From a virus (lineage: Duplodnaviria > Heunggongvirae > Uroviricota > Caudoviricetes), in IMG/VR virus record IMGVR_UViG_2609459832_000005: a stretch of 41,648 nucleotides of DNA; one strand, written 5' to 3'. Position 1 is the first letter of the stretch. Each line of letters opens with the position of its first letter. Shown one piece after another: positions 12,276-41,648 of the stretch. A program made the position numbers and the translations under genes. The notes beneath the pieces were generated by a model. It was given only the letters and a program-made list of their open reading frames with translations, did not search any database and had not been told where the DNA came from.

Positions 12276-12286
12276 CCCACACCTCT

Positions 12287-12562
12287 TTACTCAATAAAGA
12301 TCATTGGCTTACCGTTAAAGCGTTCATGCCGTGTGACCGTCCATTGTTGTCCGTCATAAACAACGCGATCCCCGCGCCGTGGGCGGTATCCCGAAGAAAA
12401 CACCACCAGAGAGACCGCAGGTCCGGACAGAGCATTCAGCTCTGCCAGTGTTTCTCCCGGGATCACGGTCATATCGACATCATTAATCGAGGCTGTCTTT
12501 CCCATCTTTCTGACCGTGATAGCATCCATACGCGCTGCCAGCCGGGAAAAGGGATCAGACAT
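12287..12562 (-). CDS. Head-tail connector / head completion protein (FII-position)
   Basis: 91-aa ORF between the capsid-associated genes and Z; synteny only, no motif recognised. Confidence 0.45.
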   Translation of the reverse strand: MSDPFSRLAARMDAITVRKMGKTASINDVDMTVIPGETLAELNALSGPAVSLVVFSSGYRPRRGDRVVYDGQQWTVTRHERFNGKPMIFIE

Positions 12563-12890
12563 TGAGTTTTACCGGCACTTCTTCTGCACTGGTTCCGGCA
12601 TCTGCCCAGACAACCCCGACCAGCGGATCAGAGCCGCTGTTAGTCAGCTGAACTTTTCCGGACTTCAGATAAACCTTCTTACCCGTTTTCATGTCATCCG
12701 TTTTCAGCTTAGGCAGCATAAACACACCTTCGGTCATACCGTCGCCTGTTTCACCCTGTGGAATATCGGTCAGCGCCACCGCAAAAACATCACCCACCTG
12801 CACCAGATCTCCGCTGCTGATGGCTGCACTGGCAACAATCGCCACCGTTTTTCCTTCTTCTACAAAATTCTTTGCCATAACTGTCTCCAC
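12555..12890 (-). CDS. Small capsid-associated protein (DUF2190-like, possible decoration/completion protein)
   Basis: 111-aa ORF immediately downstream of the major capsid gene; Gly/Val-rich beta-type sequence; family assignment from memory only. Confidence 0.4.
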   Translation of the reverse strand: METVMAKNFVEEGKTVAIVASAAISSGDLVQVGDVFAVALTDIPQGETGDGMTEGVFMLPKLKTDDMKTGKKVYLKSGKVQLTNSGSDPLVGVVWADAGTSAEEVPVKLNV

Positions 12891-12964
12891 TCAGCCCCGT
12901 TCAGGGGCTGATTTCAGGTACAAAAAAAGCCCTTACGGGCCATCAGAGTTGTTGTCTGCGACGT

Positions 12965-25857: not shown

Positions 25858-26655
25858 TCAATGAACGGTATCGAGCAGCTTTAACAGCTCAGGGAATCGG
25901 GATTCGAAGAAATGCGGCTGCGTCTCGCGCGGATTTGCGGGACTGGTGATGTTCTTGCCGAACATGCAGCCTTTCGCTGTCAGCGACCAGAATTTTTTGA
26001 TGTTGTTAATCGCGGTACGGCTGTATCGTTCGCGCTGCTCGACGATCCCCAGCTTCACCATCTGGTGATATGCCTGATTAGCCGTCAGGCGGATACCATA
26101 CTGTTTCAGCAGTGCACTCAGTGACAGTGTCGGGCGACTTGAGCCATCGTGTGCATCAGCAGGAGCATCAATGGCATAGCGCGGTGCCAGATTCGGTAAG
26201 CCAACAGCCTCCTGAAGCTTCTGACAGGCTCCAAGCACTGATGAGTTAGACAGGTTTAATTCCCGGCGCATAAAGTCCAGCAGGATCACGCCAGCCTGCA
26301 TCTTGTCAGCAGCCTGCCCGGATAATTTTTCCGGTGTGCTGGTTACCATATCGAAAGTACGGATCACCTTCAGATGGAATGACGGGCTGATCCACATTGC
26401 ATAGGCATACACCAGTTCTTTGCAGACATACGTCCCCTGGTTATTTCCGCCACGAATAACGTTAACTGGCTCTATATTGACCGAGTTGCAAATCTGCAAC
26501 TCGCTTATTAAACGTTCAGTTTGCTCATTGCGGAGCCAGAATGCAGGCTTATGCTTATCCAGAGAACCGGCAGCCCTGTGTAGATCGTTCAGGCTGTAAC
26601 GCCCATAAGCATCACGACGAACTTCAATACCATCAATGACCATCAGATTATTCAT
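25858..26655 (-). CDS. KilA-N domain protein (antirepressor-like)
   Basis: N-terminal KilA-N signature (..[28 protein letters not shown]..). Confidence 0.7.
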   Translation of the reverse strand: [265 protein letters not shown]

Positions 26656-26674
26656 ACTTCGTTTCTCCTCTTAA

Positions 26675-27064
26675 TCAGGCGGCTGCACCCGCCGGTTTCT
26701 CATACTTACTGATAGTGATCTCGACCTTCCCTTTCGGGATAACCGGTCCCCACTCCACCAGCATTCTTTTCACCTGTCTGTCGTCTTCCCACACACCCGC
26801 ATGGGTCAGGGCGTCAAACAGCGCCTTGTTATAGTTGTCCAGATCGCGGATCCGGTTATCCGGAGGAAACAACACGATCTCCACTGAAGCAGGTGCCGAC
26901 GTTGGTTTCGGCAGACGACGTAACTGCTCAACTATTGCTGCGCACGCCGCGCTCTGAAATTTTCGCCCCGCCTCGCTTATCAGGCTCTTACCTGCAAACG
27001 CCCCTTTGTTGGGGTGTCGCCAGTACGTATTCACGCTGGGCGGGAAAGGCAGGATCAGTTTCAT
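26675..27064 (-). CDS. rusA: Holliday-junction resolvase RusA
   Basis: 129 aa; N-terminal LPFPPSVNTYWRH and acidic catalytic residues (..DLDNY..ALFDAL) typical of RusA. Confidence 0.85.
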   Translation of the reverse strand: MKLILPFPPSVNTYWRHPNKGAFAGKSLISEAGRKFQSAACAAIVEQLRRLPKPTSAPASVEIVLFPPDNRIRDLDNYNKALFDALTHAGVWEDDRQVKRMLVEWGPVIPKGKVEITISKYEKPAGAAA

Positions 27065-27387
27065 ACTTTCAGGCCTCTCTCATGTAGCCAGTGGGTTGCA
27101 CGCAGCCTTGCGTTTTCCTCATCGGCAAGCAGTGCGCGGATAATCCCGACAGCCTCGCTGTCGTCGTCCTTCACCGCGGTATGAAGCGTTATCCCCCGGG
27201 CCACGCCACGCTTTATCGTGATGACGCCTTTTTTCTCCAGTGCGCGAAGATGCTCCACCGCTGCATTCACCGAACGGTATCCCAGCATGGTTGCCACCTC
27301 CTGATTGGTTGGCGGGAAGCCACGTTCTTTCTGGTAAGAAATCAGCATATCCAGCACCTGCTGCTGGCATTGAGTTAACGTCGTCAT
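27061..27387 (-). CDS. LexA N-terminal DNA-binding-domain protein lacking the S24 peptidase domain
   Basis: Likely start MTTLTQCQQQVLDMLISYQKERGFPPTNQEVATMLGYRSVNAAVEHLRALEKKGVITI.. parallels the LexA N-terminus as I recall it ([58 protein letters not shown]); no Ser/Lys peptidase region follows. Confidence 0.65.
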   Translation of the reverse strand: MTTLTQCQQQVLDMLISYQKERGFPPTNQEVATMLGYRSVNAAVEHLRALEKKGVITIKRGVARGITLHTAVKDDDSEAVGIIRALLADEENARLRATHWLHERGLKV

Positions 27388-27881
27388 TAAGCCCCCACGT
27401 AATTCCCTGACAGATACCACTCTTCACCTGATGCAGCCCGCTTACTGCTTTTCCGTAAACACCGTTCACGACGCGCCAGAAAATTGTTTCGTTCTGGCTG
27501 GGAGTGGCTTTCACGGAATGCCGCCATCCACACCGTTGCAGCACGACGGTATAAGCCCCTGGACTCCAGTTCTTCCGCCTGGCGGGTCAGGCACAAAATC
27601 ACCCGCGGGTCGTTAGTGCCGACATAGAAATTGCGCACAGGTCTGGTTTCACGAACTGGTTGTGGTTCCGGCCCCTGCGCTCTCTCAGTCAGGCGCGGGA
27701 AATGTCTGCGTGTATCTCCTTCACAACGGTGAGCCACACGCCCACTCTGACGTAACTTGCTTGCTGACTGCAGAACGCGCTGTCGTGAGTAACCAGCAAA
27801 AGCATCCGCAATGTCTCCGGAAGTGCACCCCGGATGGGCATCAATGAATTTCTGAACGTCATTTAACAGACTCATGATCAC
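27387..27881 (-). CDS. PerC-like transcriptional regulator homologue
   Basis: 164 aa; segment LESRGLYRRAATVWMAAF resembles the PerC-family core motif; assignment from memory. Confidence 0.45.
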   Translation of the reverse strand: MIMSLLNDVQKFIDAHPGCTSGDIADAFAGYSRQRVLQSASKLRQSGRVAHRCEGDTRRHFPRLTERAQGPEPQPVRETRPVRNFYVGTNDPRVILCLTRQAEELESRGLYRRAATVWMAAFRESHSQPERNNFLARRERCLRKSSKRAASGEEWYLSGNYVGA

Positions 27882-28696
27882 CCCCTAAATCCTGCCGGGA
27901 TCTGGCTGTAGTCCACGTTGTCGTAACTGGCTTTGAAGTACGGGTCCTCGCGTCTGGCTGCAGATACCGCAGGAACTTCCCAGGATTCTTCGAAATGACG
28001 ATCCGGACCAAAGAACGTGACAGCCTGTTTCACAAATTGTGTGCCGCTGTTACCCATCGCAGATACCCAGCCCGCGTAGCGTTTCACACCTTCCAGCATG
28101 GTTTCGGGTTTTACCCCCTCATTCAAACGAGCTTTCCAGGCTTTGAAGGCTGCAGATTTTGAATTGCCACCAGCACGTTTGGGGTATGCCAGCCATGCCT
28201 GCTCAAACTCCGGAGAGTATTCCGGTCGGTTTGAACGAACTCGCACGGACTCATCAGCAGATGCACCAACAGCTATTGGTTCATTGACTGGTTCTTTGAC
28301 TGGTTCAAAAGAGTGACTGGTTCTGGGTGAATCTCCTGCACCACCCCCTGGTGCAACTCCTGCACTACCTGGTGAATTTGCTGCACCAGATAGTGAATTA
28401 TTTGCACTACCCCCTAGTGAATCTCCTGCACCATCAAGATGAAGGAGATAGATATTACTTGAGTTACCTTTTTCACCTTTCCGGGTGACTTTTTTTACCA
28501 GCCCGGAATCACAAAGGGCCGCAATATGATTCATCACAGAACGTTTGCTAATCTCGCACTGGTCAGCAATATGCTGGTAGCTGGGCCAGCACTCGCCCTG
28601 ATCGCTGGCATTATCAGCCAGCTTGATCAGAACCAGTTTTCGCAATGGATTACCCACTCGAATTTTCATCGCTTTAACCATCAGCTCCATACTCAT
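27878..28696 (-). CDS. Replication initiator (lambda O-like; N-terminal winged-helix, low-complexity linker)
   Basis: 272 aa; N-terminal HTH (WPSYQHIADQCEISKRSVMNHIAALCDSGLV); Gly/Ser/Ala/Pro-rich linker encoded by tandem DNA repeats (candidate ori iterons inside the gene, as in lambda O). Confidence 0.55.
   Translation of the reverse strand: MSMELMVKAMKIRVGNPLRKLVLIKLADNASDQGECWPSYQHIADQCEISKRSVMNHIAALCDSGLVKKVTRKGEKGNSSNIYLLHLDGAGDSLGGSANNSLSGAANSPGSAGVAPGGGAGDSPRTSHSFEPVKEPVNEPIAVGASADESVRVRSNRPEYSPEFEQAWLAYPKRAGGNSKSAAFKAWKARLNEGVKPETMLEGVKRYAGWVSAMGNSGTQFVKQAVTFFGPDRHFEESWEVPAVSAARREDPYFKASYDNVDYSQIPAGFRG
28327..28433. repeat. Five tandem ~17-bp repeats (period 21-24 bp), candidate origin iterons
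   Basis: GTGAATCTCCTGCACCA (28327), GTGCAACTCCTGCACTA (28351), GTGAATTTGCTGCACCA (28372), GTGAATTATTTGCACTA (28393), GTGAATCTCCTGCACCA (28417); adjacent triplet of TGACTGGTTC at ~28283-28321. Confidence 0.5.
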
Positions 28697-28929
28697 GCTG
28701 CACCTCCGAGATGCTTCATGTTTTTTCCGGAGCGAAAGGCTATAAGCGGCATACTGACGCGGTAATTACGGCCCAGCGGTTCACAAATCACCTTCTGACA
28801 TTCACGGTCAACCAGGCTGACACGTAGAACATGCCCTGCTGGCGTGGTGTACCACTGCCCAACTGTGGGTGTTGATATTTTTTTACGCTGAAATAAACGG
28901 TAAATGTTGAGGAGCAACGGATTAAGCAT
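28693..28929 (-). CDS. Hypothetical protein
   Basis: 78-aa ORF, translationally overlapping neighbours in the early-right operon; no motif recognised. Confidence 0.35.
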   Translation of the reverse strand: MLNPLLLNIYRLFQRKKISTPTVGQWYTTPAGHVLRVSLVDRECQKVICEPLGRNYRVSMPLIAFRSGKNMKHLGGAA

Positions 28930-29758
28930 GACGATGCCCTCCGCTGATATTCAGGAGACGGTGAATATGAAAATTAGCCTTATCCGCCAGACGAATACGT
29001 TCAGCTTGCAAGTTAAGAAGGGTTTCTACCAGAACCTGATGTGCCTGCGGATCCGAAAGAGTTACCTTGCGCAGAGCACGTAGTGCAGTTGTTACATAAC
29101 TGAGTTTATGTAAGTCTTCATCATTCAGACGAGTGAGGGCTGGGACAGTAGCCATGATGGCAGCCTCCTTGATCGGTGAAATACTTCCACCACCGGAAAC
29201 GCCAATTTCGCTGGTGGTGAACTGAACGGGGTTGGCGTAACCGGTGATCAAGGAAACCGGCGCATCTTTCGATGCCCCCGCCCAGCCCACCATAACTTTG
29301 ATGTGAGCAAATGCGGACGATAAAAAAGACGCTGGCGCGTCATATATCGCCTTGATCAATTCCAGGACGCCAATCCCGGCACCCGCTTTATAAGGTGCCT
29401 GAACAGTGTAACGTCCCGGAATGGCAGAATCAATGTGCTGGTGGTCCTTCACACTCAACAAAATCACGCCTGAATTTCCACAAAGGACTAAAGCACTCAT
29501 GCGGGTAGTCTTTGCGAAGATAGATAACGCGCTGTGTTTCTGGCTCCCAACGAATAACATGAACATAAAGTCCTCTTCCGTCACGAAACCAGCGGTTAAG
29601 TTCCTGCACAACTCGCCCCCCACAGTCAGGTAAAGTTCTCTGTGGTTACTTACAGCCAGGTGATTTGGTAATCTGCATTCATGCCGTAACAACAGGTGTT
29701 CAGCGACGCTGACCACCAGCTGTTGCGACAAACGGTTATTTGCCGTTAAACTGTTCAT
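28922..29758 (-). CDS. Hypothetical protein (replication-region gene of unknown function)
   Basis: 278-aa ORF between the CII-like gene and the O-like gene; no Walker motif; function not recognisable. Confidence 0.45.
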   Translation of the reverse strand: MNSLTANNRLSQQLVVSVAEHLLLRHECRLPNHLAVSNHRELYLTVGGELCRNLTAGFVTEEDFMFMLFVGSQKHSALSIFAKTTRMSALVLCGNSGVILLSVKDHQHIDSAIPGRYTVQAPYKAGAGIGVLELIKAIYDAPASFLSSAFAHIKVMVGWAGASKDAPVSLITGYANPVQFTTSEIGVSGGGSISPIKEAAIMATVPALTRLNDEDLHKLSYVTTALRALRKVTLSDPQAHQVLVETLLNLQAERIRLADKANFHIHRLLNISGGHRHA

Positions 29759-30318
29759 GCGTTAGTTTCTCCACAGACACAAAACGCCACGACGCCCGGA
29801 GCTGCACACTCGCGGGCGTCACTCTTTTCTGGAGCGCAAAAGATTTTGTAGACCAGTGCTGCATGCTCCTGGAGCTTCGAAATTGACAGATACAACTCAT
29901 CATTAATTGCTGTCTGCTCGTGTGGCTCCACTACCCCATCTTCGATTGCCGAACGAATCTGCTTTGAGTAACTCCCGATCTGTTCGATGACTTCCAGCAG
30001 GCGCTGGTTTATATCGGCGTTCTCTACTTCCTCAATTTCAGGAAGCGATACAAACACCCCACCAGCAGACTGTGCGACAGCATCCGCAATGTAGTGAGTG
30101 CCAGCCGCGCGCTGTAAAATCATTGCCCATCCCAGCGGGAAAATCTGATCGCCATCTGCACGAAGGCGGTTGAATAAAGCGTTCTCTGTTACATCCAGCC
30201 ACTCAGCAGCTTCAGCGTAACCCCCCGGCAACGCCGCGATAGTTTTTCTGACAGCTTTCACGTACCACTCAGGCTGTTTTTCTACTTTCCAGTGATGCTT
30301 ACCCACGGTTAGCCTCAT
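29755..30318 (-). CDS. CII-like regulatory protein (CP76/YdaT-like position)
   Basis: 187-aa ORF directly downstream of cro; probable HTH around LDVTENALFNRLRADGDQ; assignment by position and weak recollection. Confidence 0.4.
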   Translation of the reverse strand: MRLTVGKHHWKVEKQPEWYVKAVRKTIAALPGGYAEAAEWLDVTENALFNRLRADGDQIFPLGWAMILQRAAGTHYIADAVAQSAGGVFVSLPEIEEVENADINQRLLEVIEQIGSYSKQIRSAIEDGVVEPHEQTAINDELYLSISKLQEHAALVYKIFCAPEKSDARECAAPGVVAFCVCGETNA

Positions 30319-30349
30319 CGTTCTGTGGTTAAAAATTGAAGGTGTTCTG

Positions 30350-30550
30350 TTAATCTTTCGGATAGATATCCGGTCTTAAGTCAGATTTCGTAATTGCACC
30401 TGACGTGCATTGCTCAAGTTTTTTAGCCAGCACAAAACTGGCTTTTTTATAACCATTGAAAACCAGCCGTAAGTAGCCTGGTGTTGAGCCAACTTTTCCG
30501 GCCAACTCGCCCTGCTGTTCTTTGGTTAAAGAGTCCCAATACGCTTTCAT
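30350..30550 (-). CDS. cro: Cro-like repressor (HTH)
   Basis: Likely start MKAYWDSLTKEQQGELAGKVGSTPGYLRLVFNG.. (66 aa) preceded by GGAGG; divergent from cI across an operator-containing intergenic region; the 167-aa track ORF is an upstream extension. Confidence 0.65.
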   Translation of the reverse strand: MKAYWDSLTKEQQGELAGKVGSTPGYLRLVFNGYKKASFVLAKKLEQCTSGAITKSDLRPDIYPKD

Positions 30551-30640
30551 ACAATATGTACCTCCGGTATACATATTACATGATTGAGATGAACCTTCAA
30601 GATACTTGTACCTTATCGGTACAAAGGTTTTAATTTCTTT
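30551..30640. promoter_or_regulatory. Immunity-region operator/promoter interval (PR / PRM with inverted-repeat operators)
   Basis: Perfect inverted repeat TTGTACC-ttatc-GGTACAA (30606-30624); second TGTACC half-site at 30557-30562; candidate PR -35 TTGAAG and -10 TAATAT on the minus strand upstream of cro. Confidence 0.55.
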
Positions 30641-31315
30641 ATGAAAACAGTCCATGACATCCGGCGGTCTAACGCCAGAAAACTGAGAGATGGTGTTGGC
30701 GGGAATTCTTCCTTTGCCACCATGATTGATCGCGAGCCAACCCAGACCAGCAGGTTTATGGGAGATGGTGCTACTAAAAATATCGGTGACAGCATGGCAC
30801 GGCACATCGAAAAATGTTTCGACCTGCCTGTCGGATGGCTTGATCAAGAACACCAGACAACAAACATCACAAAAAAACCTGATGTTTCAATTACTAACAA
30901 ACAAATAACGTTAGTCCCTGTCATATCATGGGTACAGGCCGGAGCATGGAAAGAAGTTGGCTATTCTGAGGTTGATTTGAGCACAGCAGAAACTTATCCC
31001 TGCCCTGTACCCTGTGGCGAAATGACTTATATCTTGCGGGTGATTGGTGATTCAATGATTGATGAGTACCGCCCGGGAGACATGATTTTTGTAGATCCTG
31101 AAGTCCCTGCCTGCCACGGTGACGACGTTATTGCATTGATGCACGATACAGGCGAAACCACCTTTAAGCGGTTGATAGAAGATGGAACACAGCGTTACCT
31201 CAAAGCATTAAACCCAAACTGGCCTGAACCTTACATTAAGATCAACGGTAATTGCTCTATAATTGGCACAGTAATTTTCTCAGGAAAACCAAGAAGATAC
31301 AAAATAAAGGCCTAA
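30641..31315 (+). CDS. cI: CI-type prophage repressor (N-terminal HTH plus C-terminal S24 LexA-like autopeptidase)
   Basis: 224 aa; C-terminal domain with Ser nucleophile motif VIGDSM and Lys in TFKRL; N-terminal HTH; divergent from cro. Confidence 0.85.
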   Translation: MKTVHDIRRSNARKLRDGVGGNSSFATMIDREPTQTSRFMGDGATKNIGDSMARHIEKCFDLPVGWLDQEHQTTNITKKPDVSITNKQITLVPVISWVQAGAWKEVGYSEVDLSTAETYPCPVPCGEMTYILRVIGDSMIDEYRPGDMIFVDPEVPACHGDDVIALMHDTGETTFKRLIEDGTQRYLKALNPNWPEPYIKINGNCSIIGTVIFSGKPRRYKIKA

Positions 31316-31326
31316 TCAATATTTAT

Positions 31327-31349
31327 AACCTGCTTCGGCAGGTTTTTTT
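31327..31349 (+). terminator. Rho-independent terminator after cI
   Basis: Stem AACCTGC / GCAGGTT with TTCG tetraloop followed by T7. Confidence 0.65.
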
Positions 31350-31353
31350 ATAC

Positions 31354-31386
31354 TTGACAATGTACCCTTGAGATACATAATGTATC
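31354..31386 (+). promoter_or_regulatory. pL-like early-left promoter with overlapping operator palindrome
   Basis: -35 TTGACA (31354-31359), 16-bp spacer, -10 CATAAT (31376-31381); TGTACC operator half-site in the spacer and perfect palindrome GATACAT-A-ATGTATC (31372-31386) over the -10. Confidence 0.55.
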
Positions 31387-31807
31387 TAAAAGAAACATGT
31401 CACAGGCAAGATTAAACAAAATTTGGTTGTAACACGGCGTATGGCACATGCGTCGTTAGCGGTCTGGGGACGTTAAAGGGGACAATCCACTCCTTGCTCG
31501 GGCAAACAAACCAGGTAGCCGGAATGTGCAAGTCAATGATGATGCTGATAAGACGCCTAACCAGCGTGGCGATCCGGTTTGACGCCTGGGAAGAGACTAG
31601 GGTGCAACGATGAGGGCATTTATGGAGCCGCGACAAAGTGTGGTGCCGTAACTGGCTAAGTGCTCTCAGCGTTGTGGTGAATACGCAGGCTGATGCGCGA
31701 AAGACATTGCAGCTAATGCGGAAAAGAGCTGTTCGGCGGGGCAATTAAACGCCCGAGAGAGTCTGAAATAACCGCAAGCCGGAGATCAGCACCGGTCACC
31801 ACAACAG

Positions 31808-31864
31808 CCACTGCTTTGGCGGTACCAGTTTGTACACTTGCTTCCGGCTGGTACCGCTCTTTTT
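31808..31864 (+). ncRNA. DicF-like small RNA candidate ending at an intrinsic terminator
   Basis: CTTTGGCGGTACCAGTTTGTAC resembles the Qin-prophage DicF core (GUUUGGCGGUAUCAGUUUUAC) as I recall it; 10-bp stem GCGGTACCAG / CTGGTACCGC (31819-31857) followed by TCTTTTT. Confidence 0.4.
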
Positions 31865-32001
31865 ACAAAACAGAGAAGAGCATCACCGGACGACGGGCTC
31901 ATAACCCAATCCATCCGGGCGGCTGCCACCGCAGGTGTTCTTCTCTGTTTTGTGGAGAAACCAACCGACCTTGCAGGGTCGATATGATGAGGAGCAGCAA
32001 A

Positions 32002-32364
32002 ATGGCTAGCGAACGCAGTACTGATGTGCAGGCATTTATCGGGGAGCTGGACGGCGGCGTATTTGAAACCAAAATCGGCGCAGTTCTCAGTGAAGTCGCT
32101 TCAGGTGTGATGAACACGAAAACCAAAGGTAAGGTCTCACTCAACCTGGAAATCGAACCATTTGATGAGAACCGTGTGAAAATCAAACACAAACTCTCAT
32201 ATGTTCGCCCGACTAACCGCGGGAAAATTTCCGAAGAAGACACCACCGAAACGCCGATGTATGTCAATCGCGGTGGTCGCCTGACTATTCTGCAGGAAGA
32301 CCAGGGACAATTACTGACTCTTGCCGGTGAACCTGACGGAAAACTCCGCGCAGCAGGTCATTAA
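32002..32364 (+). CDS. YfdP-like protein (120 aa)
   Basis: Likely start MASERSTDV.. preceded by GAGGAG; same length and position as yfdP in CPS-53-type prophages; the 182-aa track ORF upstream extension overlaps the sRNA terminator. Confidence 0.5.
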   Translation: MASERSTDVQAFIGELDGGVFETKIGAVLSEVASGVMNTKTKGKVSLNLEIEPFDENRVKIKHKLSYVRPTNRGKISEEDTTETPMYVNRGGRLTILQEDQGQLLTLAGEPDGKLRAAGH

Positions 32365-32429
32365 TACCGTTCTTAATTAACCGATTATTTATCTCATCAC
32401 TGAATATCTTTATATAGTGAGGACTTATT

Positions 32430-33254
32430 ATGTCTCAGAACTTAGACGCAACCGCAATTAATCAAATCCATGCCCTTATTTCTGCTCAGGGTGTTAATGA
32501 AATTATCAGTAAGATTGGTGCCGATGCTGTGGCATTGCCTGAGAATTTCCGCATTCATGATCTGGAAAAATTTAATTTAAATCGCTTCCGTTTCCGTGGT
32601 GCGCTTTCCACTGCCAGCATCGATGACTTTACCCGTTATTCTAAAGATCTTGCAGATGAAGGCACCCGCTGCTTTATCGATGCCGATAATATGCGAGCAG
32701 TCAGTGTGCTTAACCTGGGTACTATTGATGAACCAGGTCACGCAGATAACACCGCCACTCTCAAACTGAAAAAGACAGCACCGTTCTCTGCCCTGTTGTC
32801 TGTTAACGGCGAGCGTAACTCCCAGAAGTCACTGGCAGAATGGATTGAAGACTGGGCCGACTACCTTGTGGGCTTTGATGCTAATGGTGACGCCATTCAG
32901 GCAACCAAAGCGGCTGCGGCGATCCGTAAAATCACAATTGAAGCGAACCAGACCGCTGATTTTGAAGACAATGACTTCAGCGGCAAACGCTCCCTGATGG
33001 AGTCTGTCGAAGCGAAGACCAAAGACATTATGCCAGTGGCATTTGAATTTAAATGCGTTCCGTTTGAAGGCCTGAAAGAACGTCCGTTTAAATTACGCCT
33101 CAGCATTATCACTGGCGATCGTCCTGTACTGGTTCTGCGCATTATTCAGCTGGAAGCGGTGCAGGAAGAAATGGCTAACGAATTTCGTGATCTGCTTGTT
33201 GAGAAATTTAAAGACAGCAAAGTAGAAACCTTTATTGGTACTTTCACCGCCTGA
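32430..33254 (+). CDS. YfdQ-like protein (DUF2303 family, 274 aa)
   Basis: 274-aa ORF in a yfdP-yfdQ-yfdR-yfdS gene order; length equals E. coli YfdQ; assignment from synteny and memory. Confidence 0.55.
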
Positions 33255-33381
33255 TTTCATTACTGCAAATGCCCCTGCGGGGGCATTTATGGAAACATAA
33301 TTTACTCAATAATCGCCGGATGGTGAGGGCTTCCTTTTACCAGAATTCAGCGCGGTGCAGCGCATATACGTGGAGAACAAA

Positions 33382-33918
33382 ATGTCATTTATTAAAACTT
33401 TTTCCGGGAAGCATTTTTATTATGACAAGATAAATAAAGACAACATCGTTATTAACGATATCGCGGTTTCCCTTTCAAATATCTGTCGCTTTGCAGGACA
33501 TCTTTCACACTTCTACAGCGTCGCCCAACATGCGGTGCTTTGCAGCCAACTGGTACCGCAGGAATTTGCTTTTGAAGCGTTAATGCATGATGCAACAGAA
33601 GCGTATTGCCAGGATATTCCCGCTCCACTGAAACGCCTTCTTCCTGACTATAAACGGATGGAAGAAAAAATAGACGCCGTAATCCGTGAGAAATACGGGT
33701 TACCCCCGGTTATGAGCACGCCCGTGAAATATGCCGATCTCATCATGCTGGCAACTGAACGCCGCGATCTCGGGCTTGATGATGGCTCTTTCTGGCCTGT
33801 ACTGGAAGGTATCCCGGCAACAGATATGTTCAAAGTTATTCCACTGGCACCGGGCCATGCCTATGGGATGTTTATGGAACGTTTTAACGAGTTATCGGAG
33901 TTACGCAAATGCGCATGA
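33382..33918 (+). CDS. HD-domain 5'-deoxynucleotidase (YfdR-like)
   Basis: Likely start MSFIKTFSGKHFYYD.. (178 aa); HD-domain His/Asp residues (HFYSVAQHAV, LMHDATEAY). Confidence 0.7.
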   Translation: MSFIKTFSGKHFYYDKINKDNIVINDIAVSLSNICRFAGHLSHFYSVAQHAVLCSQLVPQEFAFEALMHDATEAYCQDIPAPLKRLLPDYKRMEEKIDAVIREKYGLPPVMSTPVKYADLIMLATERRDLGLDDGSFWPVLEGIPATDMFKVIPLAPGHAYGMFMERFNELSELRKCA

Positions 33919-34271
33919 ATGTTTTCGAAATGGAAGGGTTTCTTCGCGGGAAATGTGTACCGCGAGATCTGAAAGTGAACGAAACAAATGCTGAGTACCT
34001 GGTACGTAAATTCGACGCGCTTGAAGCTAAATGTGCGGCACTGGAAAACAAAATAATACCAGTGTCAGCTGAACTGCCACCTGCAAATGAAAGTGTTCTG
34101 TTATTTGATGCTAACGGAGAAGGCTGGCTAATTGGCTGGCGTTCTCTCTGGTACACCTGGGGACAAAAAGAAACCGGAGAATGGCAGTGGACATTTCAGG
34201 TCGGGGACCTTGAAAACGTCAATATCACTCACTGGGCAGTAATGCCGAAAGCACCGGAGAATAAGAAATGA
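33909..34271 (+). CDS. YfdS-like protein (120 aa)
   Basis: 120-aa ORF overlapping the 3' end of the HD-domain gene; Trp-rich C-terminal region; synteny. Confidence 0.45.
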   Translation: MRMNVFEMEGFLRGKCVPRDLKVNETNAEYLVRKFDALEAKCAALENKIIPVSAELPPANESVLLFDANGEGWLIGWRSLWYTWGQKETGEWQWTFQVGDLENVNITHWAVMPKAPENKK

Positions 34272-34483
34272 GCGTGATAAAAACTCATACAGGAATTGTT
34301 ATTACCCGAAACGGTCCGCAGGTAAAAAAACTGCACCAGACAAAGCGGATGTGGGTCGTCGGAAAAAACGAGTTTTACCACAAAGAAACCGGACGCCGCC
34401 ACTTTGCAGAAAATACGCGCCGCCGACTGCTCCTGGACAGCATCAGGCCAATTAAACAGGTAGCAACCAGAGAACAAAATTAA
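34268..34483 (+). CDS. Hypothetical small basic protein
   Basis: 71-aa ORF with ATGA overlap to the upstream gene; no motif recognised. Confidence 0.35.
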   Translation: MSVIKTHTGIVITRNGPQVKKLHQTKRMWVVGKNEFYHKETGRRHFAENTRRRLLLDSIRPIKQVATREQN

Positions 34484-34530
34484 TTATCAGGACTGAAATT
34501 TGATATTACTGCCCGTGTGCAGCGGGCTAA

Positions 34531-34749
34531 GTGGAGAAACATATGCTGAACCTCGATTGTGTTCCTATCTCAACTTATTGCAAAGAAACTGGCGAAACTC
34601 CTGAAGCAATAAACAAACGTGTACAGCGCGGTGTTTGGCGTGAAGGTGTTCAGGTTTTAAAGGTTGAAGGCGTTAAGGAGAGGTGGATTGATCTTAGTGA
34701 GGTTGCAAAATGGGCCAGACAAAACTGCTCAAACTACCGCGCGGCGTAA
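34531..34749 (+). CDS. Excisionase-like small DNA-binding protein
   Basis: 72-aa ORF immediately upstream of and overlapping the integrase gene; probable winged-helix region (INKRVQRGVWREGVQVLKVEG). Confidence 0.5.
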   Translation: MEKHMLNLDCVPISTYCKETGETPEAINKRVQRGVWREGVQVLKVEGVKERWIDLSEVAKWARQNCSNYRAA

Positions 34750-35879
34750 CAATCAGAAAACACCGTCAGGGAGAAACGATCAATATAACTTTCACCTACA
34801 AAGGAGTTAAATGTCGTGAGCCACTTTCCAATCTGGAAGTAACACCAAAGAACATTAAATACGCCGAGCGTACACTCGGCGAAATTCATAATAAGATCGA
34901 AAGGGGAACATTCATTTATGCGGAATATTTTCCCCGTTCTGCTCGTTTGAAAATTTTTGGTAATGCTGCTGCAGGCAAAACGGTAAAAATGTACCTGGAC
35001 GAATACCTTGAAATCTGCGAAACGAGAAAACTTTCACCATCTACGATTGGTGGTTATAAAAAATGCCGTAGTGCGTTAGCCTCACTCCACATTTGCCCTG
35101 CAAGTGAATTAACACCAGCAATCCTGAAAGCGTGGATTCAAAGCCAGAAAACGACCTTAAAAACAATTCGCAACCAGTTATCTTTCCTGCGGTCAGCACT
35201 TGATGAAGCCGTAACCGATGGGGTACTTCAAATTAACCCCGTATCGTTGGTAACTGCTTCGCGCTACCAAAGTGATAAGTCAGAAGCAGAAAGCAGCTAC
35301 ATGGTTGATCCGCTATCACCAGCAGAAGTTGATGCATTACTAGCAGCAGCCGGAAACAAACAATGGGAGAATCTGTTCCGGTTCGCTATACATACAGGCC
35401 TGCGTAGTTCTGAATTATGTGCCCTTCGATGGCGTGATATCGACTTTGTTGGAAAAACTGCCCATGTCCAGAGCGCAAGTGTTGTCGGTGTTATCAAAGG
35501 AACAAAGACAAAAGCCGGTACTCGTAAAGTCGAACTGACAGAAGATGCAATGTTGGCGCTGATAAATCAGAAGCCATTTACATTCATGAAGGATGCTACA
35601 GTCTTTGAAGATCCAAAGACCAATAAGCCTTGGGCAAGTGCTGATGCAATTAGAAAAAAAGCATGGGTGCCAACATTGCGGAAAGCAGGTATTCGTTACA
35701 GAAACCCATATCAAACCAGACATACATTCGCCACCAGCCATATCAGCCGGGGAGCAAACCTGTTTTGGCTTGCGGTTCAAATGGGTCATAAAGGACCAGA
35801 GATGTTATTTAGACATTATGGCTCATACCTCAAAGAATATGATGGAAATACATCTTTAAATAGAAAAAATAGATATTAG
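34710..35879 (+). CDS. Lambda-type tyrosine integrase
   Basis: 389 aa; N-terminal arm-binding-type region (LPRGVTIRKHRQGETINITFTYKGVKCRE), C-terminal catalytic region with R..H..R..Y pattern (RHTFATSHI.. LFRHYGSYL); oriented toward the attachment-site copy at 37357. Confidence 0.85.
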   Translation: MGQTKLLKLPRGVTIRKHRQGETINITFTYKGVKCREPLSNLEVTPKNIKYAERTLGEIHNKIERGTFIYAEYFPRSARLKIFGNAAAGKTVKMYLDEYLEICETRKLSPSTIGGYKKCRSALASLHICPASELTPAILKAWIQSQKTTLKTIRNQLSFLRSALDEAVTDGVLQINPVSLVTASRYQSDKSEAESSYMVDPLSPAEVDALLAAAGNKQWENLFRFAIHTGLRSSELCALRWRDIDFVGKTAHVQSASVVGVIKGTKTKAGTRKVELTEDAMLALINQKPFTFMKDATVFEDPKTNKPWASADAIRKKAWVPTLRKAGIRYRNPYQTRHTFATSHISRGANLFWLAVQMGHKGPEMLFRHYGSYLKEYDGNTSLNRKNRY

Positions 35880-35885
35880 TTTAGA

Positions 35886-35908
35886 TAAAAATGGCCTTTA
35901 CAGGCCAT
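35886..35908 (-). terminator. Terminator hairpin between convergent int and the DarT-like operon
   Basis: Stem ATGGCCT / AGGCCAT with TTAC loop (35891-35908); on the minus strand followed by UUUUA. Confidence 0.45.
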
Positions 35909-35911
35909 TAT

Positions 35912-36601
35912 TCATATCAATGTATGTTGAATAGAATAATTTTCAACACCATAATGAGATGCTAATTTTGATAAAAAACCATCCTTTGAAGATAAAACAT
36001 CATCTAACATATTTCGTCTTACTAAAGAGACAAAAAGTGCAGCTGCTCTGGCTTGGCAATTAATAGATTTCGCTGGATTAAATTCAATATCAGTAAACCC
36101 ATCAAAATTTAATAGATGGAGTGCTAGATTTTTGTTTTGATTGAGCGCACTCAAATATAACCAATCATAAAAAGCAGTCCTGGGGACAATGGGCCATATT
36201 GTATTATAAAATTTGAAGTTAACTAATCCCCCAGATTCCTTTAATCTCATATCTTTTTTTGCTTCTATCGAGCTTTTATCTAAGATATCGACATATGGTC
36301 CTCCCATTTCAAATACTTTACTTGCTTGAAATGCAGATTCAACTGTAAACTCTTTCCCAAGTCTTTTCGTCTTTATTCTTAGATTAAATGCACTAAGTGC
36401 TACCCCCAGCGCATCTTCGGATTTACTAGAAATTTCCAACAAAGAGTTCAATCCCTGCTCATTCGCTGCTGTATGTAACGCCCTGATCGATTTTTGCTTT
36501 TGCGTTTTAGACATACCAGGAGCCCAAGGAAAATCCACATCCTTCGTGATCGATAGTAAGTTCCCTGCGTTTGTAGGGACGAAAACAGGTCTAACAGCCA
36601 T
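35912..36601 (-). CDS. Uncharacterised 229-aa partner of the DarT-like gene (candidate antitoxin/immunity protein)
   Basis: Start codon 3 nt after the DarT-like stop with AGGA SD (translational coupling); AT-rich; no macrodomain or NADAR signature recognised. Confidence 0.6.
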   Translation of the reverse strand: MAVRPVFVPTNAGNLLSITKDVDFPWAPGMSKTQKQKSIRALHTAANEQGLNSLLEISSKSEDALGVALSAFNLRIKTKRLGKEFTVESAFQASKVFEMGGPYVDILDKSSIEAKKDMRLKESGGLVNFKFYNTIWPIVPRTAFYDWLYLSALNQNKNLALHLLNFDGFTDIEFNPAKSINCQARAAALFVSLVRRNMLDDVLSSKDGFLSKLASHYGVENYSIQHTLI

Positions 36602-36604
36602 AAC

Positions 36605-37228
36605 TTATCCTAAATAATAATGCCTCTGAGAATAAAGTGTTCTAGCATTAAGATTATCATAATATCTCTGTATTGTCTGTGGATATAATCTCTTGAAATG
36701 TTCAGCAGATTCTTTGTTAGGGTGAAAAGTGCTTATAATATATGAGGGAGGAATTTTTTCAAATACCAGTATTTCAGCTTGAACATCCGTCGTATACTCA
36801 CTTGGAAGGTTTACATCTCTCTGAATCCCAAAAACATTCTCTGAAAACAAAGCACTAAATGCCTCAGCTCCTTTCATCAAATCAAGATTTATAAAACGAA
36901 CGTTATTCGAAGCTGCGTTGGTAGGATAAAAAGCGCAATCCTTAGCCCAAAGAACAGATGGATTGATTTCTAATATAACCCAGTCCCCAGGCTTTAAACA
37001 TCTATATTTATAAAACATTTTTGCATTAGGGTAACTTACGGACAAACAAATCGCATCTGGATGACCATCAATCCTTTCTTCATCATTACAATTATATTCA
37101 TTATTTTCATTATCAAGTTCTGAACGAGACATAAGGCCATTATCTAAAATGGAAGTTAGATTATCGCTATGTGTAAAATGAAACAAGCTACGAATATTAC
37201 GTTGCTGAATTATTTCCTGTATTGTCAT
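36605..37228 (-). CDS. DarT-like ADP-ribosyltransferase (DUF4433 family) candidate toxin
   Basis: 207 aa; N-terminal signature FHFTHSDNLTSILDNGL (DarT hallmark [YF]H.TH.DNL..IL..G.L) and C-terminal QAEILVF resembling the catalytic-Glu motif (AEFLV) of DarT, both as I recall them. Confidence 0.6.
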   Translation of the reverse strand: MTIQEIIQQRNIRSLFHFTHSDNLTSILDNGLMSRSELDNENNEYNCNDEERIDGHPDAICLSVSYPNAKMFYKYRCLKPGDWVILEINPSVLWAKDCAFYPTNAASNNVRFINLDLMKGAEAFSALFSENVFGIQRDVNLPSEYTTDVQAEILVFEKIPPSYIISTFHPNKESAEHFKRLYPQTIQRYYDNLNARTLYSQRHYYLG

Positions 37229-37253
37229 AAAACATCCATTTACTTCATGTAAA

Positions 37254-37300
37254 TATATGTTTTATATATAACATATACCTCAAGTATCCACAAAGGATAC
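37254..37300. promoter_or_regulatory. Two inverted repeats upstream of the DarT-like operon (candidate operators/promoter)
   Basis: TATATGTT-ttatatat-AACATATA (37254-37277) and GTATCC-acaaa-GGATAC (37284-37300), 26-72 bp upstream of the DarT-like start codon. Confidence 0.35.
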
Positions 37301-37356
37301 GCATGTGATCTACTTCAAATAAAAGCTATAAATTACAGTTATTTACCATTAATAGA

Positions 37357-37386
37357 ACGCGGGTTCAACTCCCGCCAGCTCCACCA
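37357..37386 (+). other. Attachment-site core: copy of the 3'-terminal 30 nt of ssrA (tmRNA), not a complete gene
   Basis: ACGCGGGTTCAACTCCCGCCAGCTCCACCA equals the tmRNA acceptor/T-arm 3' end; upstream sequence does not continue as tmRNA. Confidence 0.65.
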
Positions 37387-37433
37387 AAATTCTCCATCGG
37401 TGATTACCAGAGTCATCCGATGAAGTCCTAAGA

Positions 37434-37465
37434 GCCCGCACGGCGCAAGCCCTGCGGGCTTTTTT
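37434..37465 (+). terminator. Rho-independent terminator (native ssrA terminator)
   Basis: Stem GCCCGCA / TGCGGGC with 12-nt loop followed by T6. Confidence 0.55.
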
Positions 37466-37519
37466 GTGCCCTCAATTTGTCCCGCGAAGTCCGAAGAAAA
37501 CTAATTAAATCCGATCCTT

Positions 37520-37573
37520 TTAGGCACCTTGTTAGGCACCTCATAAAGCTTTATTGTTTTTTGAGGTGCCTAA
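37520..37573. promoter_or_regulatory. Repeated TTAGGCACC motifs upstream of the P4-type integrase gene
   Basis: Direct repeats TTAGGCACCT at 37520-37529 and 37532-37541 plus inverted copy AGGTGCCTAA at 37564-37573, 20-70 bp upstream of the integrase start. Confidence 0.35.
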
Positions 37574-37591
37574 AACTATGGAAACCCGGCA

Positions 37592-38833
37592 ATGGCAAGA
37601 CAAACCAAACCTCTATCCGTTAAAGAAATAGAATCAGCCAAACCCAAGGAGGCGGACTACGTTCTCTATGATGGCGATGGCCTTGAGCTACTCATTAAAT
37701 CCAGCGGGAGTAAAATCTGGCAGTTTCGCTACATTCGCCCTGTCACCAAGAAACGAGCAAAGAAGAGCATAGGCTCCTACCCGTCAGTTACCCTTGCCGA
37801 TGCCAGAAACTACCGTGCAGAGTCCCGCTCACTACTGGCTAAACAGATCGATCCGCAGGAACATCAGCAAGAACAATTGCGCAGTTCGCTGGAAGCCAAA
37901 ACCAACACTTTCCAACTCGTAGCTGAACGTTGGTGGAATGTGAAGAAAGCCAGTGTGACAGAGGACTATGCGGAAGATATCTGGCGCTCTCTTGAAAGAG
38001 ACGTCTTTCCTGCGATTGGCGACGTTAGCGTTACAGATATTAAAGCTCATACACTGGTTCAGGCCGTACAACCGGTTCAGGCCAGAGGAGCACTGGAAAC
38101 TGTTCGTCGCCTGTGCCAACGTATTAATGAGGTCATGATCTATGCCCAGAACACAGGGCTGATTGATGCTGTTCCCAGCGTTAATATCGGTAAAGCCTTC
38201 GAGAAGCCTCAGAAAAAGAACATGCCCAGCATTCGACCGGATCAGCTACCTCAGTTAATGCAGACGATGCGAACAGCCAGCATTAGCCTTTCCACACGCT
38301 GCCTGTTCATGTGGCAACTTCTTACTATTACCCGCCCTGCCGAAGCGGCTGAAGCTCTCTGGGAAGAGGTAGACATAGAAGCGCGAGAGTGGAAGATTCC
38401 TGCAGCACGCATGAAAATGAACCGCGACCATACTGTTCCATTGTCAGATGAAGCAATTGCGATACTAGAGATGATGAAGCCGTTAAGTGGAAATCGAGAA
38501 TTTATCTTTCCCAGCCGCATCAAGCCAAACCAGCCGATGAACAGTCAGACCGTAAACGCATCGCTAAAACGCGCAGGTTTTGGTGGGGTGCTCGTTTCAC
38601 ACGGCCTGCGATCTATCGCCAGTACAGCCCTTAATGAGCAGGGATTTCCACCTGATGTTATTGAGGCTGCACTTGCTCATGTGGATAAGAATGAGGTTCG
38701 TCGTGCGTATAACCGTAGTGATTATCTTGAGCAGCGACGGCCTATGATGCAGTGGTGGGCTGATTTTGTGATGGCTGCAGATCACGGTAGTATGATTGAA
38801 GGAGGGATAAAGGCAATGCGGTTAGTTGGATGA
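37592..38833 (+). CDS. intA: P4-family tyrosine integrase (IntA-like, ssrA-associated)
   Basis: 413 aa; N-terminal KPLSVKEIESAKPKEADYVLYDGDGLELLIKSSGSKIWQFRY typical of P4-type integrases; C-terminal R..H..R..Y catalytic pattern; immediately downstream of the ssrA 3' end copy as in E. coli CP4-57. Confidence 0.9.
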   Translation: MARQTKPLSVKEIESAKPKEADYVLYDGDGLELLIKSSGSKIWQFRYIRPVTKKRAKKSIGSYPSVTLADARNYRAESRSLLAKQIDPQEHQQEQLRSSLEAKTNTFQLVAERWWNVKKASVTEDYAEDIWRSLERDVFPAIGDVSVTDIKAHTLVQAVQPVQARGALETVRRLCQRINEVMIYAQNTGLIDAVPSVNIGKAFEKPQKKNMPSIRPDQLPQLMQTMRTASISLSTRCLFMWQLLTITRPAEAAEALWEEVDIEAREWKIPAARMKMNRDHTVPLSDEAIAILEMMKPLSGNREFIFPSRIKPNQPMNSQTVNASLKRAGFGGVLVSHGLRSIASTALNEQGFPPDVIEAALAHVDKNEVRRAYNRSDYLEQRRPMMQWWADFVMAADHGSMIEGGIKAMRLVG

Positions 38834-38916
38834 CATGTCGTAGCTAAAACCCGTTCTGTTTTTGGGTAGATTAACCTGAAGGTCTGCAATTTTAAATGAC
38901 GCTGAAAGAAGTTAAA

Positions 38917-38940
38917 CCCTGCTCTTAAGCAGGGTTTTTA
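38917..38940 (+). terminator. Rho-independent terminator after the P4-type integrase
   Basis: Stem CCCTGCT / AGCAGGG with CTTA loop followed by TTTTTA. Confidence 0.6.
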
Positions 38941-38971
38941 TGATTTATTCTAATTTTGGTTTTGAATCTTT

Positions 38972-41259
38972 CTATTTTAAATCAGCCTTTGCGGCTCGAA
39001 TATCTGCGTTTTTTGCTGAGTATTCCCATTCGTCAGCGATTCTAAATAGCATTGCAGAAGTACGGACGCAGTGGGGCATTGAATTTGCCCATTCTCGGTA
39101 CTGCTCAGCTAATATCCTTTCTTGGTTTCCACCTTCGTAACGCATACGAGCAAATACCCCCCTTTTATTGTACCTACCAATTTGTATACCTTGCTCTAAC
39201 TCATCAGAAGATAATATTTCAATGATGTGCCGAATTGCTTCATGTGGCCAGGAATTATCTACTGAGCTATTAGGGGCATGTGCCAGAATTTTTCCTATTA
39301 CATGATCAGTGATTTCTTGGCGATGATGCAATTTTGCTAAATGGCGTACATTCTCACACCAATCTTCAAGTTTATCTTGATCAATTTCATTGTCTATCTG
39401 CCCTGGTAGTATTCGTAATTTTTCAAGTAATCTGTATATAGAAGTAGCTCTTTTAACTTCCAACTCCGATGGTTCTGTTTGTTCATCTTCGTCACTACGA
39501 TATACAATACATATTGCTTCTATAAAAACCTCTGGCTTTTTCATCATTAGACGATGCAGGATAAGTGGCTCATCGCTATCCGGAAAACAAGGCAAGTAGG
39601 TCATTTCTTTAAATGCCAAATCTGTTTCAGAAACATCGTTACGTTGTTTGAGTTCATCAAAAACTTTTTTTACATAGTACGATAGCATTGTATCAAATTG
39701 GATATCCTGGCTATTTATTTCTTTAACGACTATATCTAGAAGATATAAAAGTGTTGTAGATGGAATCTCAGAAAGGCGTTGATTTGCTGATATAATAGCA
39801 GCAAGACCCCGGCCCCTTTCTATATATTTATCCATAAGAACAAATAAATCCGAAGTTTTACCCATCATTGCAATGGGTTGTTTTTGCAACCAATATTTTT
39901 CGTTGATGTTATCTTCAAACCCTTCAATAATGCTCCATATCTCTTGTGAGTCTCTTAACGATGCTAAGATTTTCCCAGCCCTATCAGGGGTAATTTTAAA
40001 CTGTTTAAAATACACTTTTATTTTATTAAGCCATTCAGCACCAAAGCATTCAACACCATATTGCATTAACAACCCACAAACTTCATCAATATTTTTTTTG
40101 TTGTTAATAAGCATTACAAACAAATCATTTAATTTTTCTTCATCCAACGAGAGTGCTGATATATGCCTTGCTGCAATAAAAACATTATTAACTTGTTGAA
40201 AAAGGTCTTTCACCCCAGACAAACCTAAAGTAAAGTATATTTCCCTAAGTTTTTCACTTCGCATTTCTTCGACAGAAGAAAAAATTCCGCCAGCATTTTC
40301 AATTGACTCTTCAATATCAGAATCCCAATCATTGAAAATCCATAAACTGGCTCTAACCATGTCAATTGGTTTATAATTATCAAGTATTTTCGCTATTTTT
40401 TCCATAGACTCAAATTTAAATGCCCAGTTCGCATCTGAATATTTTTTATGGCGAGAATACTCATGACGCAAAGCCTCCCATACGATGAACTGATCCTCTT
40501 CAGTTTGTTGAGAAAGGCAAAGTTCAAGATGAGAAAGTGTTTCATCTATTGCATTCTCAGGGAATGAGCTTAAATGAGAGATTAGGATTTCCCATCTTGT
40601 TAGGAGTATACCTGCAAGTTTAATTGCTTCTTGGATAATAAAGATTTGCCCCTCCCAAACAACGCCCCACGTTAGTTTTTCTACATCTTTATCCGACTCT
40701 CTGAACTTCATTTTTTGGTTTTGATCAGAGGTATCATGGGAGCGAGGAAGGAGATTTTGTAACAAACTCCACCCAATACTAGGAACAATAGTGATAATTT
40801 TTTTTATAATTGCATTTCTAACTTTTACTGGTGCCCATGTATTAGGAGACCATGCCAGAAAAATGGTTCTTAAACTATTAAGAGGGCGATCTGAGTAAGT
40901 TCCTCCGGGATCTATTACAGCGAGTTTTGCAAGACAGATTGCAGCGCGTAATAGATATGTTTGTTCCCAAGCCAAGGCTTCCAATGCCCATTTTAATCCA
41001 TGATAATGACTTCGAGGAGTTAACAGCCCTTTATCTTCATTGAATATTGGAGCAATCATTTCCCCATTGCCCTTAAGCAATTGCTCAAGGGCATCAAGGA
41101 AAGGGCCAGGGGCAGCTTCTGCCAGCAGCGGAAGTTGATCTCGCAAACTAACAAATAGTCGATGGTCGTTAGCAAGTCCCGGAATACTCTGAACTATTTT
41201 GTTAACAAAATCTTGGGGTGTCATACCAGTAACCCGGAATTCGGCCTGTTCATGTAATA
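38972..41259 (-). CDS. Large AT-rich orphan protein (>=750 aa, helical-repeat-like), 5' end abutting IS3
   Basis: 767-aa track ORF whose first ~5 codons are read from the IS3 terminal repeat; first native ATG at 41222-41224 (MTPQDFVNKIV..) lies 35 bp from the IS3 end; no P-loop or nuclease motif recognised. Confidence 0.6.
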
Positions 41260-41648
41260 TGATCTTACCCAGCAATAGTGGACACGCGGCTAAGTGAGTA
41301 AACTCTCAGTCAGAGGTGACTCACATGACAAAAACAGTATCAACCAGTAAAAAACCCCGTAAACAGCATTCGCCTGAATTTCGCAGTGAAGCCCTGAAGC
41401 TTGCTGAACGCATCGGTGTTACTGCCGCAGCCCGTGAACTCAGCCTGTATGAATCACAGCTCTACAACTGGCGCAGTAAACAGCAAAATCAGCAGACGTC
41501 TTCTGAACGTGAACTGGAGATGTCTACCGAGATTGCACGTCTCAAACGCCAGCTGGCAGAACGGGATGAAGAGCTGGCTATCCTCCAAAAGGCCGCGACA
41601 TACTTCGCGAAGCGCCTGAAATGAAGTATGTCTTTATTGAAAAACATC
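41260..41648 (+). mobile_element. IS3 (left end, partial; continues beyond the window)
   Basis: Terminal sequence TGATCTTACCCAGCAATAGTGGACACGCGG.. followed by the IS3 orfA matches my recollection of IS3; orfB start (ATGAAGTATGTC..) overlaps the orfA stop at 41633. Confidence 0.8.
41316..41624 (+). CDS. IS3 transposase OrfA (HTH subunit)
   Basis: 102-aa ORF (track) with HTH and leucine-zipper-like C-terminus (EIARLKRQLAERDEELAILQKA), typical IS3-family OrfA. Confidence 0.85.
   Translation: MTHMTKTVSTSKKPRKQHSPEFRSEALKLAERIGVTAAARELSLYESQLYNWRSKQQNQQTSSERELEMSTEIARLKRQLAERDEELAILQKAATYFAKRLK

Follow-up and report, generated by a model that had tools for sequence, protein, structure and literature searches.

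A displaced ssrA 3' end as the junction of a lambdoid prophage and a CP4-57-type island

What is the last 30 nt of a tmRNA gene doing between two integrase genes, with the rest of the gene missing? The question is raised by a stretch of 41,648 nucleotides of Caudoviricetes DNA (IMG/VR record IMGVR_UViG_2609459832_000005), referred to here as the window. An earlier note, made from the sequence alone, had read the fragment as the sign of two elements in tandem at the tmRNA attachment site. We consider it very probable that the 30-mer is the junction left when two elements integrated site-specifically, one after the other, at the 3' end of ssrA, an island having entered first and a phage of the phiNP type later.

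The orphan core and the genes on either side

The tmRNA 3' tail, ACGCGGGTTCAACTCCCGCCAGCTCCACCA, has its sole match in the window at 37357-37386 on the plus strand. It is single even when three mismatches are allowed, and none of 100 dinucleotide-preserving shuffles, used as control, contained a match. No second core or any other ssrA remnant was found in the window at 3-5 errors, and no tmRNA gene was found anywhere in it by ARAGORN (zero tRNA, zero tmRNA) or by a Rfam scan at gathering thresholds. Because ACGCGGGTTCAACTCCCGCCAGCTCCACCA is single and neither program detects a tmRNA, the window holds the 3' end of ssrA without its gene, as the earlier note had described. The window is the whole of draft contig JHDP01000033.1 (assembly GCA_000601275.1), which breaks off within a repeat on both sides, in a lambdoid tail-fibre gene at its left end and in IS3 at its right; this is why it lacks ssrA and the remaining part of the island. 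The window's own ssrA is on another contig, and the left end of the arrangement is shown by proxy in relatives.

The left limit of the fragment was placed by alignment with the intact ssrA locus of E. coli strain GE3, where ssrA is directly joined to the same integrase as the right-hand one of the window. From 37357 rightward the window equals GE3 base for base, and left of 37357 it has no ssrA similarity. The 30-mer has the orientation of ssrA in relatives and consists of the T-arm, the 3' acceptor strand and CCA, the T-arm hairpin folding at 37359-37375. Identity between attL and attR is 31 nt, the 30-mer and the next A, and this core is at once the attR core of the prophage and the attL core of the island. 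For annotation, the right-hand boundary of the prophage is thereby set at 37386/37387 and the start of the island is located. A simple scan of 37100-37700 found no sigma-70-like promoter. The features of the window are as follows.

1 to 34542, no strand given: lambdoid prophage body (annotated counterparts, 97-98% identical, in complete genomes; genes and Pfam matches of the 99.96% identical ENA locus L011)
34543 to 34749, plus strand: candidate Xis (93% identical to phiNP Xis; phrog_2917 'excisionase', E=8e-44)
34710 to 35879, plus strand: prophage tyrosine integrase of the phiNP type (Pfam Arm-DNA-bind_2, Phage_int_SAM_5 and Phage_integrase)
35912 to 36601, minus strand: NADAR antitoxin of a predicted DarT1-NADAR pair (Pfam PF22397, E=1e-89)
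36605 to 37228, minus strand: DarT-family ADP-ribosyltransferase toxin, predicted (Pfam PF14487, E=7e-24)
37229 to 37356, plus strand: phage-derived P arm of attR (last 38 nt identical in 10 contigs, no ssrA similarity)
37357 to 37387, plus strand: core, the displaced last 30 nt of ssrA and one A (sequence match, GE3 alignment, contig comparison)
37388 to 37591, plus strand: left arm of a CP4-57-family island, not host DNA (709 of 5426 genomes; ~94% identity to the K-12 CP4-57 arm)
37592 to 38833, plus strand: IntA-type (P4-type) integrase of the island (Pfam Arm-DNA-bind_3, Phage_int_M and Phage_integrase; NCBIfam PRK09692, 931 bits)
38972 to 41275, minus strand: island cargo ORF (hypothetical in LT2-3, GE3 and WAT annotation)
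41325 to 41648, plus strand: 5' portion of an IS3-like transposase gene (placed through its offset from the IS3 CDS annotated in loci L001 of LT2-3 and L004 of WAT)

The prophage body carries lom, J, tape measure, head, capsid, portal, terminase and lysis genes, the Q region, and replication and immunity genes. Its left end lies off the contig, with tail fibres, GIY-YIG, EcoRII R-M, the phage-borne ssrA flank and attL. The Xis candidate overlaps the start of int, which points toward the 30-mer and encodes a protein with 92% amino acid identity to phiNP Int. PF14487 and PF22397 on adjacent same-strand ORFs predict a DarT1-NADAR toxin-antitoxin pair, which fills a cargo slot separating int from attR. 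The Pfam matches of int and of these two ORFs agree with the earlier description of a lambdoid prophage with int directed at the 30-mer and DarT-like cargo between them. The corresponding slot holds two hypothetical genes in WAT (L004:43557-44627, against window 35912-37228), and an AAA ATPase and another unannotated ORF in phiNP (L009:6171-9000); the position between int and the att core appears to be one where cargo is swapped. The P arm that follows is AT-rich and contains palindromes, and its final 38 nt are invariant across 10 independent contigs, whatever comes after the core. The only Rfam matches in the window, near 29.2-29.4 kb, are a C4 antisense RNA (82 bits) and the Hfq-binding RNA isrK (64 bits), side by side on the minus strand at 29210-29398 in the prophage early region.

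The integrase to the right of the core is 85% identical to K-12 IntA, that of CP4-57, across all 413 aa. IntA is classed as P4-type (PMC10107115, Table 1). Pairwise similarity between the island and prophage integrases is not detectable, both being tyrosine recombinases; a P4-type integrase on the right, different from the one on the left, had been correctly recognized. The cargo ORF beside it has no Pfam match and no NCBIfam match, is 767 aa long as an ORF and 750 aa as annotated in relatives, and adjoins the IntA-type integrase in GE3, WAT and LT2-3 as well. An HTH gene of 79 aa, outside the window, is annotated in the WAT and GE3 islands. Integrases 96-97% identical to the window's IntA-type protein occur in the Klebsiella phages Kp4865-2 and Kp4866-6 (OK490418.1, OK490421.1), which may be predicted prophages with an adjacent island included.

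Upstream of the island int, TTAGGCACCT stands twice in direct orientation (37520-37529 and 37532-37541) and once inverted (37564-37573). A comparison of window 37520-37573 with K-12 (L006, ~1630-1690) and the arms L017, L020 and L022 found, at the same position, one int-proximal repeat per island type, in two direct and one or two inverted copies. The motif is TTAGGCACCT in the window, TAGGCCCA in K-12, and ATGGCACCC/ATGGGACCC in types b and c. In the arm alignment, all copies within one island type change together. The pattern fits putative integrase- or regulator-specific binding sites, of which each island type would have its own.

The terminator and the native flank of ssrA

The earlier note took the hairpin to the right of the 30-mer for the native ssrA terminator. 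The hairpin is real: the island left arm forms two hairpins, one at 37392-37425 and the other, that of the terminator, at 37430-37459 with a T-run after it at 37460-37465 (fold and terminator scan; fold z = -4.5). Of 5426 complete E. coli genomes, though, 709 contain the 205 nt after the 30-mer (37387-37591), as against all 5426 for ssrA, and the hairpin and T-run at 37430-37465 thus belong to the island. K-12 is among the 709; its copy of the segment, 93.6% identical over 173 nt, makes up the left end of CP4-57. The two other island types found beside the same phage end have homologous hairpins in the same place. A host origin for the hairpin is ruled out by these counts together with the true empty site.

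That site was recovered from K-12. The right end of CP4-57 in K-12 is an imperfect repeat of the core, CGCCAGC-CCACCA, then a 155-nt segment ending in AAAGCCCACAGATGTGGGCTTTTT, then the ypjA 3' end; the native flank thus directly follows the CP4-57 attR. The imperfect repeat is the known deltaT357 (PMC10107115). A synthetic empty site composed of ssrA, the 155-nt segment and the ypjA end was used as query, and ssrA, flank and ypjA were found uninterrupted in 1385 of 5426 genomes. The 155-nt segment is therefore the native flank with the native terminator. The terminator that textbook K-12 uses for ssrA comes from a mobile element. Across the same 5426 genomes, ssrA is contiguous with a CP4-57-type arm in ~636, against 709 that carry the arm, so that ~70 complete genomes have something between ssrA and the arm.

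The native-like flank reappears at the other end of the prophage. In the ENA contig ERZ28750589:contig_5056, LT2-3 and WAT, the prophage left end has the 155-nt flank directly after the intact ssrA or core, and divergent phage cargo comes next. This flank could be taken for leftover host DNA, an origin that GE3 rules out. The GE3 island is that of WAT (99.97% over 17.4 kb, with the same IS3-family/ypjA truncation) and is prophage-free, and no copy of the 155-nt flank was found within 30 kb of ssrA in GE3. Since the same island in GE3 has no flank, the flank in the lysogens was imported in attP. The copies at the prophage left end (L003:17131-17290, L005:3101-3258 and L011:22218-22375) include the hairpin terminator and fall into two alleles among the prophages, ~93% identical to each other. 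Against an empty site, attP/attB identity would be ~186 nt and not 31 nt. Mobile elements at the ssrA site each bring a replacement terminator for an RNA of essential function.

The far end of the prophage and the order of integration

The left end of the array is visible in a 4.5-Mb relative of the window, ERZ28750589:contig_5056, which matches it at 99.96% over 1-14323 and 99.98% over 26605-41648, with identical J and DarT proteins. Leftward of window position 1 it carries lom, tail-fibre and tail-fibre assembly genes, GIY-YIG and an EcoRII-type R-M system, followed by an intact tmRNA gene (ARAGORN tag ANDENYALAA) and smpB, the ssrA 3' end lying 8.05 kb left of window position 1. The contig has two core copies 45.4 kb apart, the downstream one in a 30-mer junction identical to that of the window. 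In the chromosome-level LT2-3, the junction from int through DarTG and the 30-mer to the integrase is 100% identical over 2.5 kb, and an intact ssrA lies 40.5 kb to its left. Through these close relatives, the tandem occupation of the tmRNA site proposed in the earlier note holds, as do, by proxy, the intact ssrA beyond the left end of the prophage and the second core copy at its far end.

The window could in principle be an assembly artefact in which a draft contig misjoins a prophage end to the ssrA downstream region, for it is a short-read draft contig with repeats at both ends. The identical junction occurs, however, in at least 10 independent assemblies, including LT2-3 and the 4.5-Mb ENA contig, and we give a misjoin practically no credence.

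The prophages at this junction are not all alike. The body of the LT2-3 prophage differs from window 1-31800 (L001/L003), with baseplate J/gp47-type tail genes and not the lambda J type, and aligns well with the window only over 31818-41648 (98.7%). On these alignments, the integration module is evidently one that moves between phage backbones. In WAT an extra prophage, which has a tyrosine integrase of its own, lies left of the syntenic lambdoid one (L005:1769-3100, L004), and another ssrA 3'-end core separates the two; WAT would be a triple array if ssrA lies at the far end of the leftmost prophage.

Ten independent contigs share an identical phage arm (...TTATTTACCATTAATAGA) and core, after which come at least four different right-hand sequences. 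One is the window's CP4-57-type arm, which leads into different island cargo in different strains; a second is the arm of an island whose P4-type integrase has 409 aa; the third is an arm that adjoins decayed remnants; and the fourth (locus L016) has no island. At least four flanks behind one phage end are what is expected from site-specific integration into different recipients. They also bear on the idea that prophage and island move as one composite unit through the outermost ssrA repeats. Accretion of neighbouring elements has been discussed for tandem ssrA islands (PMC3146451), which lends the idea some precedent, but a unit of this kind would not be found with one phage end beside at least four neighbours, nor as a phage-free island in GE3, and neither WAT nor LT2-3 has an outer repeat to the right of the island. 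We regard a composite element as very unlikely.

We thus favor two successive integrations. As the comparisons show, an IntA-type island of the CP4-57 family integrated first, its own arm replacing the native downstream flank and bringing a terminator hairpin and the int-proximal repeat sites. An IS3-family element then deleted the island right end, the native flank and the ypjA 3' end, and with them attR, a deletion seen in GE3, WAT and LT2-3 that we infer for the window's genome. Next, as near-identical and related genomes show, a lambdoid phage of the phiNP type integrated through an attP composed of the P arm, the 31-nt ssrA 3'-end core and ~155 nt of ssrA-downstream-like sequence with a terminator, predicted to read ...TTATTTACCATTAATAGA-ACGCGGG...CCACCAA-TCATGATTGG.... 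Intact ssrA was rebuilt at attL, now with a phage-borne flank and terminator, and the old 3' end moved ~45 kb off, to 37357-37386, with the phage P arm on one side of it and the island arm on the other. The order of these events rests on parsimony, and precise prophage loss from GE3-like strains would give the same pattern.

The same final arrangement would also arise in the reverse order, the lambdoid phage entering an empty ssrA and the IntA-type island later entering the displaced 30-nt fragment. The fragment keeps the T-loop and the 3' acceptor strand and could in principle act as attB, and the inferred IntA crossover, just left of T357 (PMC10107115, Table 1), falls inside it. The distribution of the island argues otherwise. 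An identical island with the identical IS3/ypjA truncation sits directly beside ssrA in GE3, CP4-57-type arms are contiguous with ssrA in ~636 genomes, the prophages in front of the same island differ between WAT, LT2-3 and the ENA contig, and recent movement is not possible for an island deprived of its attR. A late arrival of the island is accordingly improbable, and we retain the order of island first, phage second.

Variants in two of the compared loci bracket the phage crossover, which would fall between positions 4 and 23 of the 30-mer: a phage-side A variant in WAT gives one limit and a recipient-side deltaT in locus L016 the other. Within this interval, the most likely site is the 7-nt T-loop, with the GCGGG/CCCGC stem halves as putative core-type sites.

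Mobility, tmRNA integrity and comparison with known systems

In WAT and GE3 the island extends for ~16 kb up to an IS3-family element to which a truncated ypjA is fused, a fusion that LT2-3 has too. A search rightward of the island in WAT and LT2-3 gave neither a second core nor the native flank, both of which it finds in K-12 as a control, and a deltaT357-type attR is absent in WAT, GE3 and LT2-3. LT2-3 had suggested that the island is a stump of int plus one gene, a picture softened by the ~16 kb of cargo past the first IS3 in WAT, GE3 and the ENA contig, in which the right end is still missing; the gene order of the ENA contig equals that of WAT as far as the region was retrieved. The island right end is probably lost in the window's genome too, and the island is most probably fixed in place and can no longer excise. 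The prophage Int and Xis could excise the prophage, restoring the ssrA-island arrangement, with a predicted attB of ssrA followed by AAATTCTCC.... Because the island right end is probably lost, the PCR for separate excision of each element that the earlier note proposed is expected to work for the prophage alone; we predict that nothing but the prophage, together with the DarT1-NADAR cargo, can be excised.

The loss of attR also has consequences for tmRNA. In K-12, excision of CP4-57 by IntA and AlpA leaves ssrA with deltaT357, and ribosome rescue shifts to ArfA (PMC10107115). Because the island right end and attR are deleted (in the relatives), this 'regulatory switch', by which excision switches off tmRNA, cannot operate here and is predicted to be unavailable in this arrangement. 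A prophage between ssrA and a CP4-57-type island might, more generally, uncouple island excision from tmRNA inactivation, or repair it, a suggestion that we put forward only tentatively and think rather doubtful. If it were true, the deltaT357 lesion would fall in the orphan 30-mer and spare the gene, and a phage entering ssrA(deltaT357) would restore the wild-type 3' end from attP. One relative, ENA ERZ28603658 scaffold_4 (L016:9844-9872, the counterpart of 37357-37386), has behind the same phage arm an orphan core that reads CGCCAGC-CCACCA, the scar of CP4-57 excision in K-12 and just the product that the suggestion predicts. To the right of this deltaT core lie a different hairpin and then glaH, and the locus is island-free; the ~255 nt flank beside the core has matches in 0 of 5426 complete genomes. 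Repair of a damaged ssrA by the phage, excision of an island after the phage had arrived, and chance loss of the T all fit this locus.

Tandem arrays at tDNAs are a defined category of the Islander database, with 125 in 2168 genomes and the tmRNA gene as the most enriched target (PMC4383910), and in E. coli and Salmonella its site is one of a pair of hotspots with extreme diversity (PMC3603311). The array described here is an ordinary new instance of this well-described stacking at ssrA. Like an Islander tandem array, it has the intact target gene at one end (beyond the window, in the ENA contig and LT2-3), a same-orientation displaced 3' fragment that marks the boundary, and for each element its own tyrosine integrase next to the fragment. 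It differs in that not every member has a displaced fragment of its own: in WAT and LT2-3 the prophage has one and the island none. By the strict Islander rule, only the prophage would count as an island, the distal member being without attR in the complete-genome relatives.

The phage member most resembles phiNP of Citrobacter rodentium (OR565852.1), in a comparison that covered Int, Xis, the cargo slot and the att region of a record that may be delimited from prophage coordinates and not from packaged DNA. Besides the Int and Xis identities given above, the two share a cargo slot between int and core and an attP that joins the ssrA 3' end to a terminator-bearing flank resembling the DNA downstream of ssrA; Int, Xis and the core are in the window, and the flank is at attL in the relatives and in the phiNP record. 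The phages differ in cargo, an AAA ATPase and an unannotated ORF in phiNP against DarT1-NADAR here, and in phiNP the ssrA similarity is longer on the left (36 nt with one mismatch) and the flank is diverged and Citrobacter-like.

The island member is of the CP4-57 type, having an IntA-like integrase beside the core and a homologous, island-borne left arm. As in K-12 CP4-57, with which it shares the integrase (85% identity), the left arm (~94%), the hairpins and the terminator, it sits right after the ssrA 3'-end core. In contrast to CP4-57, it carries different cargo and a different repeat motif (TAGGCCCA there, TTAGGCACCT here), has a 45-kb prophage between itself and the functional ssrA, and has lost, in relatives of the window's island, the right end with the deltaT357-type attR. 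Stacked ssrA islands bounded by 3'-end repeats, some of them fixed, are also known from Dehalococcoides (PMC3146451). Those islands are of one family, with serine recombinases and a 20-bp repeat, whereas here two unrelated tyrosine integrases share a 30-nt fragment.
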